Below the pieces are notes generated by a model. It made no database searches. It was given only the letters and a program-made list of their open reading frames with translations, and was not told the origin of the DNA. Source: Deinococcales bacterium (GTDB taxonomy: Bacteria; Deinococcota; Deinococci; Deinococcales; JAAFIG01). Taken from it: a stretch of DNA of 40,310 bases. This document shows, piece by piece, positions 28,331 through 37,521 of this stretch. The stretch's first letter is position 1; each line of letters opens with the position of its first letter. Location of the stretch: NCBI GenBank assembly GCA_031414595.1, contig JANNVX010000007.1, positions 1-40,310 on the forward strand. The letters run 5' to 3'. The translations under genes were made by a program, and so were the position numbers.

Positions 28331-29623
28331 CTATTCGTACCGTAAGGCATCCACGGGTTGAAGTTTGGCGGCTCTCGAGGCGGGGTAGTATCCGAAGAAA
28401 ATGCCGACGAAGGCACTAAAACCAAAGGCAAGCAGGACGCTCGAGAGTCCAATCACAGGGGTGATGTTCAGGGCGCTGCCAGCCAGCAACGCCAGCCCAA
28501 TACCAATGGCTGCGCCTAGTAAGCCTCCACCGACACTCAGGGCAATGCTTTCGACCAAAAACTGGGTCAGGATGTCTCGAGGGCGTGCGCCTAGGGCTTT
28601 TCGGATGCCGATTTCCCTTGTGCGTTCGGTCACACTCACCAACATGATGTTCATGATGCCGATTCCGCCGACCAGCAAACTAATTCCAGCCACTCCGCCT
28701 AAAAAAAGGGTCAGGATGGTGGTGACTTGGTTGAGGCTGGATAAGGCATCGGCTTGGTTTTGGACATTAAAATCGTAATCATCGGGGACTTCTTTTTTGT
28801 GCAGTTTTGCCATCGCATCTATTAAATCGGTTTGCAGTTGTTTTAAGTCGTTTTTGTCTTTTCCTTGAATATAGGCACTGGATACCGTATCGGCGGTGCT
28901 GCTTTGTCTGCCTAGGCGCTGCGAATAAGTCGAGAGCGGCACAATAATCTGGGTGTTCGGACTGGCAAACCCCGCGTCGCCTTTATCGGGCAGAATACCG
29001 ACGACATTAAAAGTAATCCCACTGAGCTTAAATTTACCGCCGACACTGAGCAGTAAATCGGTGGCAACTTGGTAGCCAATTACGGCAACACGTTTGCGTC
29101 CGTTATTGTCGGTTTCGCTAAAAAAAGCGCCTTTTTCTGGGATGGTATTGCGTACAAGCGCATAGTCTGACCATGAACCAATCACCGTGGCTTGGATATT
29201 ATTTGTACCCGCTTTGGCTTGAATGTTGCGTTGCACCGTCGGGGCAATACCACTGATTCGGCTCGAGAATTGTTCACGCAGGGCTTTGACATCATCTAAG
29301 GTAATGGTTTGTTGTCCGCCGCCACGCACCAGACCAAAGCCGCCACCTCGAGCGCCCGACCCACTGCTCACGGTTAGTAAATTTGTGCCAAGTCCCTCGA
29401 GTTGTTTTTGAATCCCACTGGTTGCCCCACTGCCAAGGCTGGTCAGGGCAATCACGGCTGCCACACCAATAATTACGCCCAAGGTGGTCAGGATGCTGCG
29501 AAGCGGATTCCCGATAATCGCTCGAGCCGCAATTTGTACGGTTTGCGATAATGGCATCCCACCGCCGCCACTCGAGACCAATTCGGTAATTCGGGGTGTT
29601 TCTTGCTCGAGAACCAGACTCAT
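28331..29623 (-). CDS. MacB/FtsX-family ABC permease
   Basis: RSILTTLGVIIGV, GGIGIMNIMLVSVTERTREIGIRKALGA, PVDALRYE. Confidence 0.95.
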   Translation of the reverse strand: MSLVLEQETPRITELVSSGGGGMPLSQTVQIAARAIIGNPLRSILTTLGVIIGVAAVIALTSLGSGATSGIQKQLEGLGTNLLTVSSGSGARGGGFGLVRGGGQQTITLDDVKALREQFSSRISGIAPTVQRNIQAKAGTNNIQATVIGSWSDYALVRNTIPEKGAFFSETDNNGRKRVAVIGYQVATDLLLSVGGKFKLSGITFNVVGILPDKGDAGFASPNTQIIVPLSTYSQRLGRQSSTADTVSSAYIQGKDKNDLKQLQTDLIDAMAKLHKKEVPDDYDFNVQNQADALSSLNQVTTILTLFLGGVAGISLLVGGIGIMNIMLVSVTERTREIGIRKALGARPRDILTQFLVESIALSVGGGLLGAAIGIGLALLAGSALNITPVIGLSSVLLAFGFSAFVGIFFGYYPASRAAKLQPVDALRYE

Positions 29624-30324
29624 GCTGCCTTCCTGATTTGCCGGTTAGGGCTGTCTGACTCGAGTAAGCCATCACGCAGACGCACAATACGCTGGCAGTG
29701 TTCGCCAATCTCGGGTTCGTGGGTCACAATAATCACGGTGCTGCCTTCATTGTGCAGGGCTTGGAATAGACTCATGATTTCGATGCTGGTTTTACTGTCC
29801 AAGTTACCTGTTGGTTCATCGGCTAATAAAATGGCTGGCTCGAGGGTCAGGGCGCGTGCCACGGCGACCCGTTGTTTTTGACCGCCAGAAATTTGACTGG
29901 GTAAGTTGCGCCATTTGTCGGCAATGCCAACCCGTTCAAGCGCCCACATTGCCCGTTCACGGCGTTCTTTGGCAGGGATTCCAGCGTAAATCATTGGGGT
30001 TTCGACATTCTCGAGGACATTTTGGCGGGTTAATAAGTAAAAGGCTTGGAAAACAAAACCAATATCTAGATTTCTCGCCCTCGAGCGTTCATTTTCGTTG
30101 AGGGTCGTGACATCACGTCCGCGCAATTGGTACGCGCCTTCGGACGGTGCATCGAGCAGTCCAATAATTTGCATGAGCGTGGTTTTGCCACTGCCCGAAG
30201 GTCCCATCAAAGCCACCATTTCGCCGCGCTGAACGGTCAAACTCACGCCTTTAAGGGCTTGGAATTCTTCATCGGCTAAGTAATAACTTTTGATAACGTT
30301 TTGTAACTCAAGGATGTTGTTCAT
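29620..30324 (-). CDS. ABC ATP-binding protein (MacB/LolD type)
   Basis: GPSGSGKTT, ISGGQKQRVAVARAL, LADEPTGNLD. Confidence 0.96.
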   Translation of the reverse strand: MNNILELQNVIKSYYLADEEFQALKGVSLTVQRGEMVALMGPSGSGKTTLMQIIGLLDAPSEGAYQLRGRDVTTLNENERSRARNLDIGFVFQAFYLLTRQNVLENVETPMIYAGIPAKERRERAMWALERVGIADKWRNLPSQISGGQKQRVAVARALTLEPAILLADEPTGNLDSKTSIEIMSLFQALHNEGSTVIIVTHEPEIGEHCQRIVRLRDGLLESDSPNRQIRKAA

Positions 30325-31625
30325 GGTCTTCCGCTCGGAGTTGTAGTTGTGCTTGTGGTGCGTTCTTTGGTGGTCAGAATCACACGGTCTCGAGCCGCAA
30401 GCCCAGAATCAATCACCACATTTGTGCCGTCTTCGGCGGCTATTGTCACTCGAGTCAGTTCTTCTGTGCCGTCGCGTTTTTGAATGTTCACATAAGTACG
30501 GTTTCGCACGGTCTGCACGGCGCGTTTTGGAATCACCACCACATTCTGGAATTCTTGGGCAATAATTTCGACTTCCGAAGTCATGCCGGGGCGCAGTTTT
30601 AATTCGGGGTTTTCTATTGTTACAGTCGCATAAAACACGGCTATGTTTTGCTGCACCACTGCTTTTGGGCTTACAGCAGTGACTTTGCCCGTAAAAGTTT
30701 CGTCAGGTAGCGCATCTAAGGTTACTTCGGCAGTTTGACCGACTTTAACCTTGGCAATTTCGGTTTCATCTACCTGCACAGGGATTTTGACCCTCGAATC
30801 CTCAATGAGCGTTAAAATACTCGAGCCGCCAACACTGCCCCCAATCTGCCCCGTGACACTCGAGACAATCCCATTAAAAGGCGCATAGATTTTGCTGTTG
30901 GCAAGGTCGGTTTGGCTTGTCTGTACACTGATTTCGGCTTGGCGAATGGCAAGTTCTTGGTTGCGTAAGTCTTGGGTGTCGGTTGAAGATTTGATGTTTT
31001 GGGTGCTTTGGGTGGTCTGAAGACTTAAGCGGGTAGTGGACAGGCTGTTTTGGGCTTTTTCTAGGTTGCGTCTGGTTTCATCAAGTTGGTTTTGGCTTGC
31101 TCCACCCGCCTTATACAAACGCTGCATATTGTTGTAATTGCTTTGCGCCGTGGATAAATCAAGTTTGGCATTGCTCATTTGACTCTGGGCATTTTGCAGA
31201 CTTTGGGTTTGGCTGCTGCGGTTACTCGCTTGGTTTAACTTGGTGCTTTCCAAAGAAATTCTGGCTTTTTCGAGTTGCAGCTTGGCATTCTCGAGGTTGC
31301 GGTTAAAGGTCGTTGTGTCAAGCCGAGCAATTAACTCTCCTTTATTCACTCGAGCGCCTTCTTTGACAATCATGGCGAGTGTTCCACTGACACTGGGTTT
31401 GATGTCCATGCTGCTGACTGCCTCGAGCGAACCTGGTCCTGTCACCGAAACCCGAAAAGTGGTTAAGTCGGCTGTAGCTGTCTCGACTTTAACCAAAGTG
31501 GTCGGGTCAGCCCCAGCGCCGGGCGGTTTAACAATTCCTGTGGCAAGTAATCCGCCGCCAATTGCGGGCAGTAGCAGTAATGCCCACCACCATCTCGAGG
31601 TTTTGCGTTTCTTGGCTTTGTTCAT
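30321..31625 (-). CDS. Periplasmic adaptor (membrane fusion protein, MacA-like)
   Basis: N-terminal TM, VKEG..V.KG, long coiled coil, IYAPFNG, LRPGMT. Confidence 0.93.
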   Translation of the reverse strand: MNKAKKRKTSRWWWALLLLPAIGGGLLATGIVKPPGAGADPTTLVKVETATADLTTFRVSVTGPGSLEAVSSMDIKPSVSGTLAMIVKEGARVNKGELIARLDTTTFNRNLENAKLQLEKARISLESTKLNQASNRSSQTQSLQNAQSQMSNAKLDLSTAQSNYNNMQRLYKAGGASQNQLDETRRNLEKAQNSLSTTRLSLQTTQSTQNIKSSTDTQDLRNQELAIRQAEISVQTSQTDLANSKIYAPFNGIVSSVTGQIGGSVGGSSILTLIEDSRVKIPVQVDETEIAKVKVGQTAEVTLDALPDETFTGKVTAVSPKAVVQQNIAVFYATVTIENPELKLRPGMTSEVEIIAQEFQNVVVIPKRAVQTVRNRTYVNIQKRDGTEELTRVTIAAEDGTNVVIDSGLAARDRVILTTKERTTSTTTTPSGRP

Positions 31626-32671
31626 TTGTCACCTCCTCCGAGTTTTACCACCAAGCCAATCACGTCCACACCACTGGCAGTCGAAACAGTTGCCAAATTA
31701 CGCCAGTACGCATCCACAGCTTGGGTTTGGCTGTACGCGGCTCTGGTGTATGCCAATTCGGTTTGTTGCAAAGTAATTCTCGAGATACTGCCGCCCTTAA
31801 ACCGCGCTTGGTCTTGGTCTAAATTCGATTTGGCATTGTCTAAATCTTTGGCACTGATTCCCACACGTTCACGGGCATTGCTGGCATTGCGAATCGCATC
31901 ACGCAGGGTATTGACCGCATTGGCTTTACTGGTTTCTAAGCTGCGCTTGCTGTTCTCGAGCGTGGCTTGGTTGTCTCGTAGGGTATTTAGGGGTGTGAAA
32001 TCATTATCGGAAAGTTTGACATTTAACTCTGCCAAACTGACATTCTGTGCGGCTTGTAAGACACTCCCAATGCGACTCTCTAAACCCGCCTCAAGGGCTG
32101 CTGCATCGAGTTTGACATCCAGTTTTGCTAAATTATCCGAAGCCGCTAAATCGCCTTTAGCCCCAGTCACCAACTCGAGACGGTTACTTAACACCGGAAT
32201 CTGTGCTTTGGCATCGGCAAGGCTTTGTTTACTCGAGGAGACAGTGCTTTCGGCTTTAGAAACATCAAGCGCCGTACCATTGCGAGCCGCTAGTTTTGCT
32301 TTGGCAATTTCTAAATTCCGAAGGTCTAAACTGGTCTGTGCCTCGAGAACCGCTAGATTTTCCTGTGCCTCAAACAAATTGATATAGGCAGTTAGCACAC
32401 TCGAGAACACCGAAAGTTTTTGCGCTTCAAGCTGCACTGCGTTTAACGCCACGGTATTTTTAGCCTGACTGAGCGGCACAATTAAAGTGGTTGGGTCGGC
32501 TTCCTTGACTGCTAAATCGGCTCGAGCATTGGCTAAGGTTGCACGGCTGGTCACAAGGTCAGTGTTTCGCTCGAGGGCTAATTTTGTTGCTCCCTCGAGA
32601 TTGAGGGCAGTGGCGGCGGCAAGGGCGATTGAGATAAACGCAAAACCAATAAAAATCATTTTTTTCATCAT
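31622..32671 (-). CDS. TolC-family outer-membrane efflux protein
   Basis: Signal peptide, two helical OEP-like repeats, position in the efflux operon. Confidence 0.85.
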   Translation of the reverse strand: MMKKMIFIGFAFISIALAAATALNLEGATKLALERNTDLVTSRATLANARADLAVKEADPTTLIVPLSQAKNTVALNAVQLEAQKLSVFSSVLTAYINLFEAQENLAVLEAQTSLDLRNLEIAKAKLAARNGTALDVSKAESTVSSSKQSLADAKAQIPVLSNRLELVTGAKGDLAASDNLAKLDVKLDAAALEAGLESRIGSVLQAAQNVSLAELNVKLSDNDFTPLNTLRDNQATLENSKRSLETSKANAVNTLRDAIRNASNARERVGISAKDLDNAKSNLDQDQARFKGGSISRITLQQTELAYTRAAYSQTQAVDAYWRNLATVSTASGVDVIGLVVKLGGGDK

Positions 32672-32720
32672 GAACTCCTAAGTAGGCAAAAGTGAAAGTG
32701 GGGAAGTGCGTAAGACTTGA

Positions 32721-34025
32721 TTATTTGGTCAACCCCTTACCAAGCGAATTCTCGAGCCTAAGCCATGCCACGTAAGCGGTTACAATCGTATTTTCTAGGT
32801 CGCGTTCGGCTTGCTGCATGGCTAAACGGCTGGTCTCGAGGTCGTTTTTGGTTTGGCTACCTGCGTTGACTCTGGTTTGGGTTGTGCTAAAAGCATTCTT
32901 GGCGTTCTCGAGGGCTTTTTTACTTAATTCAATGCGTCGTATGGCATTTTGGGTTTCAGAGTATTTTTGGCGTACATCCAACTCAGCACTTTTCTTGCTG
33001 CGTTCAAGGTTTTGTTTGGCACTGTTGAGGGCGGTTTGGGCGCTGGTGATTCGTGCATCGCCCGTTGGGGCGATAACGGGTAAGCTGATGCTGGCGCTGA
33101 TGCTGATGGTTGTGCCTGTGCTTGGTGTGGTTGGCGGTTGGTATGAACCACCGATACTTAAACTGCCTGTTTGTAAATTAAGCGAGGTGTTCAGGTTTGC
33201 ACCACTGTCAGACACCCCAAGGTTAATACTGCTGGCGGGTAGCCATCGGTCACGCTGGGCGATGGTTAAATTATCTTCGGCATCTCGTAGGGCATAAATG
33301 GCTTTTTGGGTGTCAGTGCGGTCGATTAAGGCGGTTTTTAAGAGGTTCTCGAGCGGTAAAAGTGCGGCGGGGGTGGGTGGGCTACTTATGGCAAGGCTTA
33401 GTTCGATTTGGTCAAGGGTATTGGCGAGGGTTTGTTGGTTTAACTCGAGGGTATTTTCGGCTTGGTTGGCACTTATTTTGGCGCTTTCTAAGTTTTGTTG
33501 GCTGGTGGCGAATTGCTCGAGCGTGATTTGATTATTGCTGCGCTGGGTCAAAGCGGTTTTTAATTGGTTTTCACGCAAAATAAGGGTGTTACTGGCAAGT
33601 TCTAAATCCAATGCGGCAACCCGAAGATTAAAGTATTGGGTGTTGACACCAATAAAAAGTGTGTTTCTTGAGTCGCGTACATCGAGTTTAGCCCGTGCAA
33701 AAGTGCGTTCGGCTTTGCGAATATCATCAAATTGACTCGCCCACGGCAGAAGCGGCAAACTGGCAGTGGCATTGACTTTGTAGGTTGCATTGTTGACCCC
33801 TGTACCCGTATTGGTGTTGTTGCTGACATCTGCGCCAACTACTAAACGCAAACCAGCCGCCGCTAAACTACTCTCAAAATTATGTTGTGCAACCAAAAAG
33901 GTTTGGTCTATGACTTGCCATTCAAGACTCTGCGGTAAGCGTTTAAGCACCTGCTCGAGGGTTTGGTTTGTAGCTGCCAATGCCACACCAAAAAATAGGA
34001 TAAGAATGAATAGGGTTTTTTGCAT
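32721..34025 (-). CDS. TolC-family outer-membrane efflux protein
   Basis: AGGAG RBS, signal peptide, OEP repeats with beta-strand segments. Confidence 0.87.
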   Translation of the reverse strand: MQKTLFILILFFGVALAATNQTLEQVLKRLPQSLEWQVIDQTFLVAQHNFESSLAAAGLRLVVGADVSNNTNTGTGVNNATYKVNATASLPLLPWASQFDDIRKAERTFARAKLDVRDSRNTLFIGVNTQYFNLRVAALDLELASNTLILRENQLKTALTQRSNNQITLEQFATSQQNLESAKISANQAENTLELNQQTLANTLDQIELSLAISSPPTPAALLPLENLLKTALIDRTDTQKAIYALRDAEDNLTIAQRDRWLPASSINLGVSDSGANLNTSLNLQTGSLSIGGSYQPPTTPSTGTTISISASISLPVIAPTGDARITSAQTALNSAKQNLERSKKSAELDVRQKYSETQNAIRRIELSKKALENAKNAFSTTQTRVNAGSQTKNDLETSRLAMQQAERDLENTIVTAYVAWLRLENSLGKGLTK

Positions 34026-34058: not shown

Positions 34059-34096
34059 CCGAAGGTTCTAAGAACTCAGCGTGAAGGTATTGTGAA
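34059..34096 (-). promoter_or_regulatory. Phased TTCAC repeats (11-bp period), candidate OmpR-family binding site for the efflux operon
   Basis: Minus-strand TTCAC starting at 34096 and 34085, then TTCTT and TTCGG at the same period. Confidence 0.5.
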
Positions 34097-34133
34097 TGTT
34101 GTTTTTATGATGGTTTTCATCTATGCTTTTTAG

Positions 34134-34358
34134 ATGAATGCTGTCCTTGAACAAACTGTACGGGATTTGCCACTCGAGGAACAATTTGAGTTACTTGACG
34201 TGCTTCATGACCAAGTTGCCCAAGCCCTGAATTTACGCCTGCCCCTGCCAGAAGATGTTGAACTCGAGTTAGACCAACGAATTGCACGAATGCGCTCTGA
34301 GCCTCATGTTGGAATTCCTTGGCGAGAAGTTCCGAATTTGCAAAACCGCCTCTCATAA
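34134..34358 (+). CDS. Putative addiction-module antitoxin component, orphan
   Basis: LPLEEQFELLD.L...ELDQRIA...GIPWREV pattern; TATGCT-N6-ATG. Confidence 0.75.
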   Translation: MNAVLEQTVRDLPLEEQFELLDVLHDQVAQALNLRLPLPEDVELELDQRIARMRSEPHVGIPWREVPNLQNRLS

Positions 34359-34359
34359 C

Positions 34360-34394
34360 AAAAACCGCAACTTGAGAGACTTTCCCAAGTTGCG
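34360..34394 (-). terminator. Rho-independent terminator closing the peptide/ABC operon
   Basis: Minus strand CGCAACTTGGGA-AAGTC-TCTCAAGTTGCG followed by GTTTTT. Confidence 0.75.
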
Positions 34395-34414
34395 AATGAT
34401 TTTTCACCATGAAT

Positions 34415-35173
34415 CTATTCGTGACCAAGAATACCTTTCTGCTTTGCGATTTGCAAAGATTTTTGTAGCAAAAAAGTACCAGAGATAAAATAACCCAAAG
34501 CACTCATCAAAGCGGGGAGTAAATACTCGAAGTCTGGTTTACCACCAAAAGCAGCCCAATTAACTAAACTTGTAGCTGAAGCAATTGGAATTAAGTAGAA
34601 CCAAAGGTCTTTGATCAAGGGTAATGCAACCAACCCGAATAAAAATAGTTGGGAAAGAACTAAGACTCCACTATTATCTTTAATAAGCATTGCAACACTA
34701 CCAAACCAGAACCCAAATCCAAGCGCACTTATCATAGCGATTAACATTGGAATAACCATATACCAAGACCATTCCAATGTTGTTCCTGTCAACAAGAGCA
34801 AACCCCCAAGTAAAACGCCCATCTGTAGAATGTTGAGGAATAAACCTCCAAGCGCACGGGCTGTAAATATAGTAGCTAAGCTATGACCACTTAAAAACAG
34901 ATGTTCCAGCATACCGTTCTTTGATTCAGTACGAATTAAGCTACTGGGAAGAGAAACCTGAGAAAAGACAATCATGCCAAGCGTATAATTAAGGATTAGA
35001 CTTGCAGTGCTTGCCGTTGTAGGAGCATTACTCGATAATAAACGACCAGCACCTAAAATTAAATAAAAAATGACACCCAAAACAATTAAACCTGTAACTG
35101 TTTGGAATGGATTTCGTTTTAATTCCCAAATACTACGAATAAATTCTATCCTGAACAGCAGTAATGTATTCAT
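34415..35173 (-). CDS. ABC-2-type exporter permease
   Basis: About 6 TM segments, E..NGMLEHL motif, ATGA overlap with the ATPase gene. Confidence 0.87.
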   Translation of the reverse strand: MNTLLLFRIEFIRSIWELKRNPFQTVTGLIVLGVIFYLILGAGRLLSSNAPTTASTASLILNYTLGMIVFSQVSLPSSLIRTESKNGMLEHLFLSGHSLATIFTARALGGLFLNILQMGVLLGGLLLLTGTTLEWSWYMVIPMLIAMISALGFGFWFGSVAMLIKDNSGVLVLSQLFLFGLVALPLIKDLWFYLIPIASATSLVNWAAFGGKPDFEYLLPALMSALGYFISGTFLLQKSLQIAKQKGILGHE

Positions 35174-36078
35174 GCTTTAACCTCTGCATCTTTGATGGCT
35201 TTACGAAAAATTGTACCCAAATCAACCTCAAGTTTCTCTATATTTATGATAGCTCGTGGATGAAGTGCATCTAATATCGTATACAGTCCATGAGGGTCTG
35301 GAAGTGTAATAGTCATTTGATTGCCAGTTATTGTACTTGGAAAATGAGTTGAAAAATTTTCAAGGGAGTTTTCAAAAGTTAAACGATATGTTTGAACTCC
35401 GAATTGCGAAATCAATTCAGCCCGTGGCTTATCCAAAAGTACCTGACCACCAACTAAAATGACTACACGGTCAGCTAAGCGGTCAGCTACTTCCATTTGG
35501 TGGGTTGTCAATAGAACTGCGACCCCAGAAAGTGCCATCTCTTTTATGCGTTCTTCGAGTGCGTCACCTGCTTCTAAATCAAGCCCAAGTGTTGGTTCGT
35601 CAAGCAACATACAACGTGGTTGGTGTATCAAAGCATTTGCCAGAGCTAGTTTTGAAAGCATACCCTTAGAAAGTGTTTGTGTTGGCGCATCCCGTTTATC
35701 TACCAGTCCAAGTTCATCTGTTAACCGCAATGCTCTAATTTTTGCTTCTTTTGGGCTAAGCCCTCGCAGTGCGGCTGTGTACTCAAGATTTTCCATAACG
35801 CCAAGCCGAGCGCTACTTGAACGTGCAGTATCAAGTAATACGCCTAGACGAGCATTATATCCTTTTGTGTCAGGTGCATACCCCTCGAGCCTAACAGTTC
35901 CACTATCAGGAACTATTAAACCCGCAATCATTCTCATGGTTGTGGTTTTGCCAGCGCCGTTTGCTCCCAATAAAGCAACTACCTCGCCAGACTTAACAAC
36001 AAAGCTAACACCATCTAATGCACTAACTTTGCGTTTGTGTGCGCGAAATGTTTTCCGTAAATCAGCAACTTCTAGCAT
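35170..36078 (-). CDS. ABC-2-type exporter ATP-binding protein
   Basis: GANGAGKTT, LSKGM, LLDEPTLGLD, TTH. Confidence 0.95.
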   Translation of the reverse strand: MLEVADLRKTFRAHKRKVSALDGVSFVVKSGEVVALLGANGAGKTTTMRMIAGLIVPDSGTVRLEGYAPDTKGYNARLGVLLDTARSSSARLGVMENLEYTAALRGLSPKEAKIRALRLTDELGLVDKRDAPTQTLSKGMLSKLALANALIHQPRCMLLDEPTLGLDLEAGDALEERIKEMALSGVAVLLTTHQMEVADRLADRVVILVGGQVLLDKPRAELISQFGVQTYRLTFENSLENFSTHFPSTITGNQMTITLPDPHGLYTILDALHPRAIINIEKLEVDLGTIFRKAIKDAEVKA

Positions 36079-36162
36079 CTTTTACCTCATAGTTTTCAAT
36101 CTAAACGAGAATACGCTTACATTTTTAGTCTTTATTTTATCTCCATACTTTCGTATTTTTTA

Positions 36163-36194
36163 CTCACTGGTCTTAGCTTATTAAGACCAGTGAG
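36163..36194. promoter_or_regulatory. 13-bp-stem hairpin between the peptide genes and the exporter (mRNA stabiliser or partial attenuator)
   Basis: CTCACTGGTCTTA-N6-TAAGACCAGTGAG; no U-tract on the minus strand. Confidence 0.7.
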
Positions 36195-36262
36195 CTATTG
36201 ATTGAGCTTGAATGAGAAGGAAGTGAAGACTTTTTATTCCCAATAACTACTAGGGTAAGAGT

Positions 36263-36316
36263 CTAACACATTCCAAAAACGTGGCATAAAATTGCCCCAA
36301 TAAAATTCGCATACAT
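36263..36316 (-). CDS. Small peptide 4, MYANFIGAILCHVFGMC (17 aa, C-x5-C)
   Basis: AAGGTGG RBS before ATG; TAG stop; motif shared with three neighbours. Confidence 0.75.
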   Translation of the reverse strand: MYANFIGAILCHVFGMC

Positions 36317-36375
36317 AATTGCCACCTTGAATCCTTAAATTTATAAAACAAACCCAGAGATATGCGAACATACAT

Positions 36376-36438
36376 TTAGCAATAAATTCCTGACCAACAT
36401 AGTGCGTACATAATAGCGTTTACAATAGCTTGTCCCAT
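36376..36438 (-). CDS. Small peptide 3, MGQAIVNAIMYALCWSGIYC (20 aa, C-x5-C)
   Basis: AGGAAGGTGA RBS before ATG; TAA stop; shares AIV with peptide 2 and YALC with peptide 1. Confidence 0.8.
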   Translation of the reverse strand: MGQAIVNAIMYALCWSGIYC

Positions 36439-36499
36439 ATAATCACCTTCCTTTTGCATTGAGAAAACCAAAACTAATTCTCATCCTCACATATCATAT

Positions 36500-36565
36500 T
36501 TAGCTGTCACAGCCGCCAAATACGATACAGATAATTTGTACAATAGCAGATATAAATCGTTGCAT
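36500..36565 (-). CDS. Small peptide 2, MQRFISAIVQIICIVFGGCDS (21 aa, C-x5-C)
   Basis: AAGGAGGTGA RBS before ATG; TAA stop; shares VFG with peptide 4. Confidence 0.82.
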   Translation of the reverse strand: MQRFISAIVQIICIVFGGCDS

Positions 36566-36599
36566 AAGATTTCACCTCCTTCTAAATCTTTTGAAACCG

Positions 36600-36653
36600 T
36601 TAAAAGCAATATCCCAAGTAGTTACACAAAGCGTAATAAAACCAACCAGTCAT
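36600..36653 (-). CDS. Small peptide 1, MTGWFYYALCNYLGYCF (17 aa, C-x5-C)
   Basis: GGGGAGG RBS before ATG; TAA stop. Confidence 0.8.
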   Translation of the reverse strand: MTGWFYYALCNYLGYCF

Positions 36654-36767
36654 ATTTTTCCTCCCCTCAAAGTCCGCGTGTCAATTTTTCTTCGTTGTGG
36701 GTTATCAGTTTATACAAATGAAGTGCTTAGCCAATTAGTCATAAAGCTCAACCAAGAAAAACTCAAT

Positions 36768-36805
36768 TTCACTTAATCTTCACAGTTTCCTCGAGCCACC
36801 TTCAT
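36768..36805 (+). promoter_or_regulatory. Phased TTCAC-like repeats (11-bp period) upstream of the response regulator
   Basis: TTCAC 36768, TTCAC 36779, CTCGA 36790, TTCAT 36801, then CATAAT-N6-ATG. Confidence 0.5.
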
Positions 36806-36828
36806 TTGTTGGCTGTCATAATGGTCTT

Positions 36829-37521
36829 ATGAGTACACTACACACCATGCCAATCGTTCTGGTTGTCGAAGATGAAACTGAAATTGCCGATGTTTTAGAA
36901 GCCTATTTGCGTAAAGAAGGTTTTCGCACTGAACGGGCTGCCGATGGTGACAGGGCGCTCGAGTTGCATCGTTTGGTTAAACCCGATTTGATTCTGCTCG
37001 ATGTGATGCTGCCCAAAAAAGATGGTCTCGAGGTGCTGCGAAAAGTGCGGGCAGATGGCAACACCCCTGTTATTTTACTGACCGCTCGAGCCGAGGACAT
37101 TGATAAACTGATTGGTTTGGAACTCGGCGCAGATGATTATGTGATTAAGCCGTTCAGTCCGCGTGAAGTGGTGGCGCGGGTCAAAGCGGTCTTGCGTCGG
37201 GCGCGTCCAGAAGAAAAATTAGATGTGCTGCGGGTGGGCTACTTGGAACTCGATGTGCGGGCAGTGGCGGTCAAAGCCAGTGGCTCAAGGTTGGATTTAA
37301 CCCTGACCGAATTTAGGTTGCTCGAGGCGTTAATGCGGGCAGTGGGTCGGGCGTTTACCCGTGCAGAATTACTCGAGGTCGCACTGCCAGATTCAGATGC
37401 CTTAGAGCGAGTGGTGGATGCACACCTAAAAAATTTACGCCATAAATTAGCCGACGCGGGTGTGGGCGATATGCTCGAGACGGTGCGTGGGATTGGTTAT
37501 CGCTTGCGGTTTGAGACGTGA
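36829..37521 (+). CDS. OmpR/BaeR-family response regulator
   Basis: VVEDE, LLDVMLP, GADDYVIKPFSPREV, wHTH ending TVRGIGYRL. Confidence 0.96.
   Translation: MSTLHTMPIVLVVEDETEIADVLEAYLRKEGFRTERAADGDRALELHRLVKPDLILLDVMLPKKDGLEVLRKVRADGNTPVILLTARAEDIDKLIGLELGADDYVIKPFSPREVVARVKAVLRRARPEEKLDVLRVGYLELDVRAVAVKASGSRLDLTLTEFRLLEALMRAVGRAFTRAELLEVALPDSDALERVVDAHLKNLRHKLADAGVGDMLETVRGIGYRLRFET

Follow-up and report, generated by a model that had tools for sequence, protein, structure and literature searches.

An apparently undescribed family of leaderless two-cysteine micro-peptides with its own ABC exporter clade in Deinococcota

Phenol-soluble modulins (PSMs) are leaderless helical peptides of about 20 amino acids that occur in paralog sets (20–26 aa for PSM-alpha) and are exported by a type V ATP-binding cassette (ABC) transporter that also gives the producer immunity (PMC12623860). 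For the multi-peptide leaderless bacteriocins (aureocin A70, garvicin KS and cereucins X/H/V), a review gives three or four tandem leaderless paralogous genes beside transport genes and no modification enzymes; peptides of 26–34 aa with charge +2 to +5, a grand average of hydropathy (GRAVY) of at most 0.71 and no disulfide bonds; and, for aureocin A70, an immunity protein of its own, AurI (PMC6131525). Here we describe four tiny genes and an adjoining two-gene ABC exporter in a stretch of 40,310 nt from a Deinococcales bacterium (GCA_031414595.1, contig JANNVX010000007.1, positions 1–40,310 of the forward strand), the whole of which is called the window. They apparently represent a real, undescribed family of leaderless two-Cys micro-peptides with its own exporter clade in Deinococcota. 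PSM-like export of leaderless peptides is, to our knowledge, known almost only from Gram-positive Bacillota.

A preliminary description of this DNA had placed four co-oriented open reading frames (ORFs), each led by a Shine-Dalgarno (SD) sequence and carrying C-x5-C, ahead of a hairpin, an ABC ATPase, an ABC-2 permease and a terminator; the peptide ORFs lie on the minus strand with the positions and cysteine counts claimed, and the other elements follow where it had put them. Peptide 1 (MTGWFYYALCNYLGYCF, 17 aa) is encoded at 36600–36653, peptide 2 (MQRFISAIVQIICIVFGGCDS, 21 aa, resembling type A below) at 36500–36565, peptide 3 (MGQAIVNAIMYALCWSGIYC, 20 aa) at 36376–36438 and peptide 4 (MYANFIGAILCHVFGMC, 17 aa) at 36263–36316. 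Each has C-x5-C and exactly two cysteines; peptides 1, 2 and 4 read CxxxGxC, and in peptide 3 the Gly stands one place earlier. Their SD strengths, as anti-SD duplex energies, are −11.2, −17.6, −14.4 and −9.8 kcal/mol respectively, that of peptide 4 being the weakest (−7.4 over a narrower span). The calculated monoisotopic masses in Da (reduced / disulfide / disulfide with N-formyl) are 2113.88 / 2111.86 / 2139.86 for peptide 1, 2299.15 / 2297.14 / 2325.13 for peptide 2, 2206.01 / 2203.99 / 2231.99 for peptide 3 and 1888.85 / 1886.83 / 1914.83 for peptide 4. G+C is about 0.35 across the peptide region, versus 0.47 in the whole 4.49-Mb host genome.

Downstream on the same strand come a 13-bp hairpin with a 6-nt loop (36163–36194; one scan counts 14 pairs), lacking a U-tract on the coding strand, then a DrrA/NodI-like ABC ATPase of 302 aa (35170–36078; PF00005 at E 7e-27, best NCBIfam match TIGR01188 below its cut-off) and a 252-aa ABC-2 (type V) permease (34415–35173; PF12698 at E 3e-5, below cut-off) whose start overlaps the ATPase stop. 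An intrinsic-terminator-like hairpin of 13 pairs followed by TTTTTG (34365–34395) closes the unit. Besides the peptides, the module holds only ATPase and permease: no modifying enzyme, leader, protease, receptor or immunity gene was seen in it, which upholds the earlier remark that neither leader nor modifying enzyme is visible. An Rfam scan of 34300–36900 gave no match.

A chance origin of the ORF set in the window is excluded, because the four best SD scores among 95 comparable ORFs sit within 400 bases. The 95 are the ORFs with a C-terminal C-x5-C and only two cysteines among the genome's 36,095 ATG-started ORFs of 12–30 aa; the window's four rank 1–4 among them by SD strength. The genome's 777 intergenic SD-led small ORFs form 22 arrays of at least two members and three of at least three. 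Of the 22, only the window array has four members, and no other consists entirely of hydrophobic two-Cys peptides.

Carriers beyond the window's genus belong to a family of the same order, f5, which is probably Thermaceae. Two peptide types recur there: type A, of 20 aa with C-x5-C, and type B, of 19–21 aa with C-x4-C. The pooled ratio of nonsynonymous to synonymous change (pN/pS) is 0.285 for type A (10 distinct genes) and 0.172 for type B (11 distinct genes); third codon positions vary in 19/19 columns of A and 17/18 of B, and both cysteines are invariant. Judged by selection, types A and B are real coding genes under purifying selection; the type A copy of one genome (G191) is frameshifted. 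At a related locus (L037, genome G042) the RNA data consist of assembled contigs; those of run X1 extend over the flanks as much as over the genes and could stem from DNA. Run X3 has a single contig there (3582–3857), lying over the first peptide genes and beginning just behind the predicted promoter, although such contigs give no level, strand or start.

The peptides are tied to one exporter clade. Of 364 genomes of the phylum searched with a permease profile, 104 gave a match at E ≤ 1e-25. The top 16, seven of which had served to build the profile, have E values below 1e-68, and a sharp break separates them from the rest, where the best value is 1e-46. The DNA upstream of the ATPase was read for some of the matches, 87 loci in all; 20 of these lie above the break (the 16 genomes and four metagenome contigs) and 67 below it, 55 of the latter being evaluable. 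Scanning upstream of homologous transporters for small ORFs was the check put forward in the preliminary description, and two-Cys peptide ORFs with strong SDs were found in 14 of the 16 genomes, two to four in each, and in three of the four contigs. The remaining contig (L097) has degenerate peptide copies, and the remaining genomes (G009 and G006) have none. No two-Cys peptide array was present in any of the 55 evaluable loci outside the clade, the look-alikes there being single ORFs with two cysteines one or two residues apart (L053, L114 and L134). A quick tree of the permeases groups all peptide loci into a single clade (SH-aLRT 98), together with G009, G006, L097 and two proteins that lack gene context. 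The expectation that the ORFs are genuine genes of a conserved family is thus borne out by selection and by linkage to the exporter clade. The exporter had also been called dedicated, and this is mostly right, but the two next-closest transporters, discussed below, are free of peptides.

Profiles of types A and B each give a single match in 11 of 68 f5 genomes, and exactly these 11 have the clade permease; the 11 hits are so by construction, and the informative part is the 57 blanks and the absence of orphan copies, none having been found away from an exporter. A peptide-profile search of the 364 phylum genomes added only one match (G254, E 0.018), rejected as chance for want of a start or SD context. 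Among plasmids the permease search gave no match for the window protein or for P0011, and viral contigs gave none by the peptide-B pattern or by permease alignment. At E ≤ 0.001 the wider permease family has 1,113 representatives; look-alike clusters occur in both Bacillota and archaea.

The 30 distinct peptides are 17–22 aa long (20–22 aa in 23 of them), with GRAVY values of 0.64–1.95. In 27 of them the chain ends with the last Cys, and in 28 a Gly, Pro or Asn stands late in the Cys loop. The motif C-x5-C, likened to the Rana box of frog peptides, had been proposed as the defining feature, and this did not hold up: the spacing is x5 in only 15 of the 30, x4 in 11, x9 in three and x6 in one, and the closest relatives in the same genus (G001 and G002) use x9, x9 and x6. 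On this comparison C-x5-C is a local trait and not a family signature, and the features that appear fixed are two cysteines, one of them at the C-terminus, high hydrophobicity and a charge of 0 to −2.

Among the window's peptides, peptide 1 is the most divergent copy, as the family profile does not match it at E ≤ 0.05. Peptide 2 shares 42% identity with the type-A peptides of the family alignment and has a helical hydrophobic moment above that of shuffles (p=0.004), and peptide 4 matches the family profile at E 0.001, the profile having been built partly from peptide 4 itself. The counterpart of peptide 3 is a 20-aa C-x9-C peptide in G001 and G002 that keeps Gly17 and Cys20; the first Cys stands at position 14 in peptide 3 and 10 in the counterpart, a distance of four residues or one helical turn. 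Such a shift would fit a helix with a C-terminal tail that folds back, the disulfide lying on one face. Scans of six peptides of at least 20 aa against Pfam and NCBIfam gave no match, to PSM families or any other, at E ≤ 10, sensitivity being low at such length. No published description was found either, though peptide catalogues in supplements, outside the search, could list such ORFs undescribed. The earlier impression of an unrecognised family is therefore retained, no library family having matched and no description having turned up in the literature searched.

The AlphaFold2 model of the permease (predicted local distance difference test score 94.8) best resembles KpsM (Z 18.4, root-mean-square deviation 4.1, 240 residues aligned), Wzm (Z 17.6) and TarG (Z 15.5). 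Since the fold is type V and these three score above PmtD of the staphylococcal PSM exporter Pmt, the modelled permease is best read as a type V ABC transmembrane domain of the same class as the PSM exporter, not as a specifically Pmt-like one. A search of the permease profile against PDB sequences returned no real transporter match.

The peptides and their pump are gained and lost as a unit. The inserted module spans 34098–36760, about 2.66 kb with ends uncertain by a few bases, and its flanks are joined directly in G005 (flanks 94–95% identical), G004 and G003, making it a clean 2.66-kb indel relative to these close relatives. Within the insert lies a plus-strand ORF of 74 aa (34134–34358) resembling an addiction-module component (PF09720 at E 3e-6; no toxin partner visible), probably a separate passenger. 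The cassette that G001 carries at this site has different peptides, transporter DNA only 66% identical against 89% for the flanks, and the PF09720 ORF on the other side of the peptide operon; the slot has therefore been filled or replaced more than once. In f5 the cassette lies between a PNP_UDP_1-family gene and a glycerol-3-phosphate acyltransferase gene; of five non-carriers checked, two (G206 and G188) have these genes adjacent and three have other DNA between them. Patchy presence, slot-like replacement and turnover of paralogs fit a competitive or social trait.

Around the window's slot, the insert splits two inverted GTGAA-repeat boxes (34080–34097 and 36761–36790, 11-base spacing) in the divergent promoter region between an efflux operon and a BaeR-like regulator. 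These boxes resemble OmpR-family binding sites; because the insert lies between them, the peptide operon may have come under the control of the BaeR-like regulator. The efflux operon (28331–34025) encodes two tandem TolC-family outer-membrane factors, a membrane-fusion protein and a MacB-type ATPase and permease; it is divergent from the two-component pair and occurs with or without the peptide module. It was considered as the outer-membrane exit of the system and rejected, since it is present at empty sites too and is missing beside the f5 loci.

We propose that the locus is a self-contained peptide export module working like staphylococcal PSMs plus Pmt. One operon would yield two to four leaderless, very hydrophobic peptides of 17–22 aa, each from its own ribosome-binding site, and the hairpin after the last peptide gene would keep peptide mRNA in excess of transporter mRNA. 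In 15 of 17 peptide loci, four of them near-copies, a strong hairpin stands between peptides and ATPase (z −2.8 or lower relative to simple shuffles), the sequences being unrelated, and that of the window is probably an mRNA stabiliser or partial attenuator. The peptides would fold into a short helix that partitions into the inner membrane, and the co-encoded type V exporter would extrude them. By analogy with PmtCD this exporter would double as producer protection, a role proposed for it because the module has no immunity gene. Outside the cytoplasm, in the periplasm, the C-terminal Cys would fold back over the Gly/Pro/Asn turn to form a disulfide with the helix Cys. The products would then be membrane- or surface-active effectors, either a mixture directed against competitors or biofilm surfactants. 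That the peptides are the exporter's cargo we regard as highly probable, and that they carry a disulfide as probable; the whole chain, membrane or surface activity included, has in our estimate a probability of about 0.55.

Several points weigh against this proposal. The permease is structurally nearer to KpsM, Wzm and TarG than to PmtD, which ranks only eighth (Z 13.1, root-mean-square deviation 4.6, 222 aligned residues). Net charge is 0 in 18 of the 30 peptides, −1 in 10 and −2 in two, with none cationic, unlike typical membrane-lytic bacteriocins. The helical hydrophobic moment exceeds that of shuffles (p<0.05) in just nine of 40 peptide rows, which include window peptides 2 and 3 and leave out types A and B. 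DsbB was found in all five carriers tested, which would suit disulfide closure in the periplasm, but its presence is only permissive because it is common in the phylum. The host is diderm, and the module holds no outer-membrane channel that would take the peptides past the periplasm. Finally, the nearest transporters after those of G001 and G002 are those of G009 and G006 (ATPase 67–68% identical), with no peptides upstream, so that the pump can exist without peptide cargo; that of G009 (L035) follows a MerR-like gene (PF00376 at E 5e-4, below cut-off), and that of G006 (L036) a helix-turn-helix gene and two membrane proteins. These peptide-free pumps may be cheaters, immunity-only or resistance copies, or may serve another substrate.

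A tentative alternative makes the invariant A/B pair, C-x5-C with C-x4-C, an obligate hetero-oligomer, possibly with interchain disulfides, that permeabilises or remodels membranes without positive charge. The peptides would then form a new class of bacterial secreted peptides, uncharged and built as a helix plus a disulfide without leader or enzyme, in a diderm phylum, and the permease family would be a marker of hidden micro-peptide arrays; its use as a general marker is suggested because a second, unrelated type of array lies upstream of a sister clade.

It is unlikely that the peptides are instead exported, disulfide-cyclised signals (quorum or kin) with a receptor encoded elsewhere, for example by the BaeRS-like pair beside the module in G000 and G001. 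They are small, neutral and potentially cyclic, those of G000 and G001 differ sharply, and the insertion between GTGAA-repeat boxes puts the module in a promoter region common to a response regulator and an efflux operon. The module, however, brings no receptor along: empty sites have the two-component pair as well, and in f5 the genes next door code for a PNP_UDP_1-family enzyme and a glycerol-3-phosphate acyltransferase. Across three genera, moreover, types A and B hardly vary, unlike pheromones of the specificity-group kind. AgrB (PF04647) was found in none of the five carriers, in a search without a positive control, as no control genome passed the cut-off.

Quite improbable is a role as exported dithiols, free or metal-binding, that chelate Cu, Hg, As or Zn or buffer redox, with the pump removing the peptide-metal complex or placing it in the envelope. 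Two invariant cysteines in a genome with 0.7% Cys, and the weak MerR-like gene ahead of the peptide-free G009 homolog, would agree with this. A spacing that drifts among 4, 5, 6 and 9 is ill suited to a metal site; the chain is very hydrophobic and has just two cysteines, and near the mapped peptide loci there is no metal-sensing regulator or metal-resistance gene.

More doubtful still is the idea that the peptides are single-helix inner-membrane microproteins, subunits or modulators of a transporter that moves lipid or another substrate. Chains of 17–22 hydrophobic residues can span a membrane, the nearest permease folds are glycolipid exporters, and strict co-occurrence fits a subunit as well as it does cargo. 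This sits poorly with a copy number of two to four with extra paralogs unrelated in sequence, with an intervening hairpin that implies an excess of peptide over pump, with close transporters that have no peptide at all, and with pumps that seem intact where the peptides are frameshifted (L107 and L097). Last, short ORFs with Cys codons ahead of a hairpin and an operon recall functionless leader peptides for cysteine-sensing attenuation of the transporter genes, a notion that is very hard to reconcile with amino-acid conservation over the full length alongside free synonymous change, with several independent ORFs having only two non-adjacent Cys codons, and with a hairpin that in the window lies about 70 nt past the last peptide stop and has no U-tract.

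Further control elements were noted at loci of the family. Eight f5 loci (L037, L039, L104, L106 and L109–L112) have a common sigma-70-like promoter 40–130 bases upstream of the first peptide, with a homopolymer run of A or T in its spacer, and in several of them a short hairpin overlaps the first SD; phase variation or thermometer-like control is possible. The f5 promoter is present as a 29-base tandem duplication in run X1 and contig L099. In G001 a long, perfect, operator-like palindrome (L032:3594–3634) directly follows a TTGACA hexamer just upstream of the first peptide gene.

Other small ORFs were found as well. The second, unrelated micro-peptide array belongs to family f3, where it precedes the transporter genes of a sister clade within the permease family, at L053 (G020), L054 (G028), L113 (G073), L114 (G113) and L115 (G170). 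Its SD-led ORFs, about 1.2 kb upstream of the ATPase, encode acidic, Cys-free peptides of 41–53 aa whose central segment is hydrophobic. G028 has as many as five nearly identical copies in tandem and a variant besides, and a large TPR-containing, regulator-like gene is found still further upstream in G113 and G073. G000 has three SD-led ORFs of 38–43 aa (C21:2044–2160, C29:7058–7174 and C39:29563–29694), each signal-peptide-like with a short Cys-containing tail, which are possibly small secreted peptides.

The module points to PSM-like export logic in Deinococcota, with a putative disulfide and no positive charge; the disulfide is chemistry that the leaderless-bacteriocin class is said to lack (PMC6131525). 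Genes of this size are too small to be picked up by routine annotation, and more of them could be sought through the exporter clade. The peptides, about 20 aa long and conserved in near-complete assemblies, can be synthesised cheaply, so that their function lends itself to direct tests; they may prove to be heat-stable antimicrobials or biofilm surfactants.

Several known systems share part of this architecture. TMcins, reported from Bacillota and Actinomycetota, have a very hydrophobic N-terminal helix, a disulfide between conserved cysteines and a two-gene ABC exporter; they carry a 28-residue beta-hairpin, and a metalloprotease of the cluster releases them from a precursor with a leader (PMC12328743). 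They share with the peptides reported here the hydrophobic helix, the Cys pair (its disulfide probable in our case) and the two-gene exporter; here there is no leader and no protease, and the loop is only 4–9 residues. The Rana-box ring has seven residues. Brevinins, which carry this box, consist of a helix and then a C-terminal disulfide loop; they are cationic, with Lys in the box, and are made from signal-peptide precursors (PMC7168151). The likeness to what is described there lies in the C-x5-C of half of our peptides (15/30) and is one of analogy only, the loop size here not being fixed and no member cationic. Agr autoinducing peptides are small exported peptides with a Cys a few positions before the end; unlike the AgrD/AgrB system, the present one has no leader or tail and no receptor in the module, and its second Cys is at the terminus. 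Enzymes for ribosomally synthesised and post-translationally modified peptides of the lanthipeptide, sactipeptide or YcaO kind are absent from the module; in the five carriers YcaO was found in none, SPASM in one and LanC in none, LanC being blank in all controls too.

The comparison with aureocin A70 and garvicin KS, drawn in the preliminary description, holds for the tandem leaderless genes (four here, two to four in relatives) without modifying enzymes. It is weakened because all peptides here are neutral or anionic: 17–22 aa, charge 0 to −2 in 30/30, GRAVY 0.64–1.95, two cysteines with a presumed disulfide and no immunity gene are all unlike those bacteriocins, so that the cationic and, presumably, the disulfide-free character of that class does not recur. 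Pmt is encoded apart from psm, and PSMs are not known to contain Cys. The present module shares with PSM/Pmt leaderless paralog sets of about 20 aa (17–22 aa here) and a permease of the same type V fold; it differs in the two invariant cysteines and C-terminal turn, in peptides that are more hydrophobic and mostly not strongly amphipathic, in a pump encoded in the same operon and in a diderm environmental host. By analogy, the module would act most like PSM/Pmt and is arranged like the aureocin A70-type clusters, and seems to be a member of neither.

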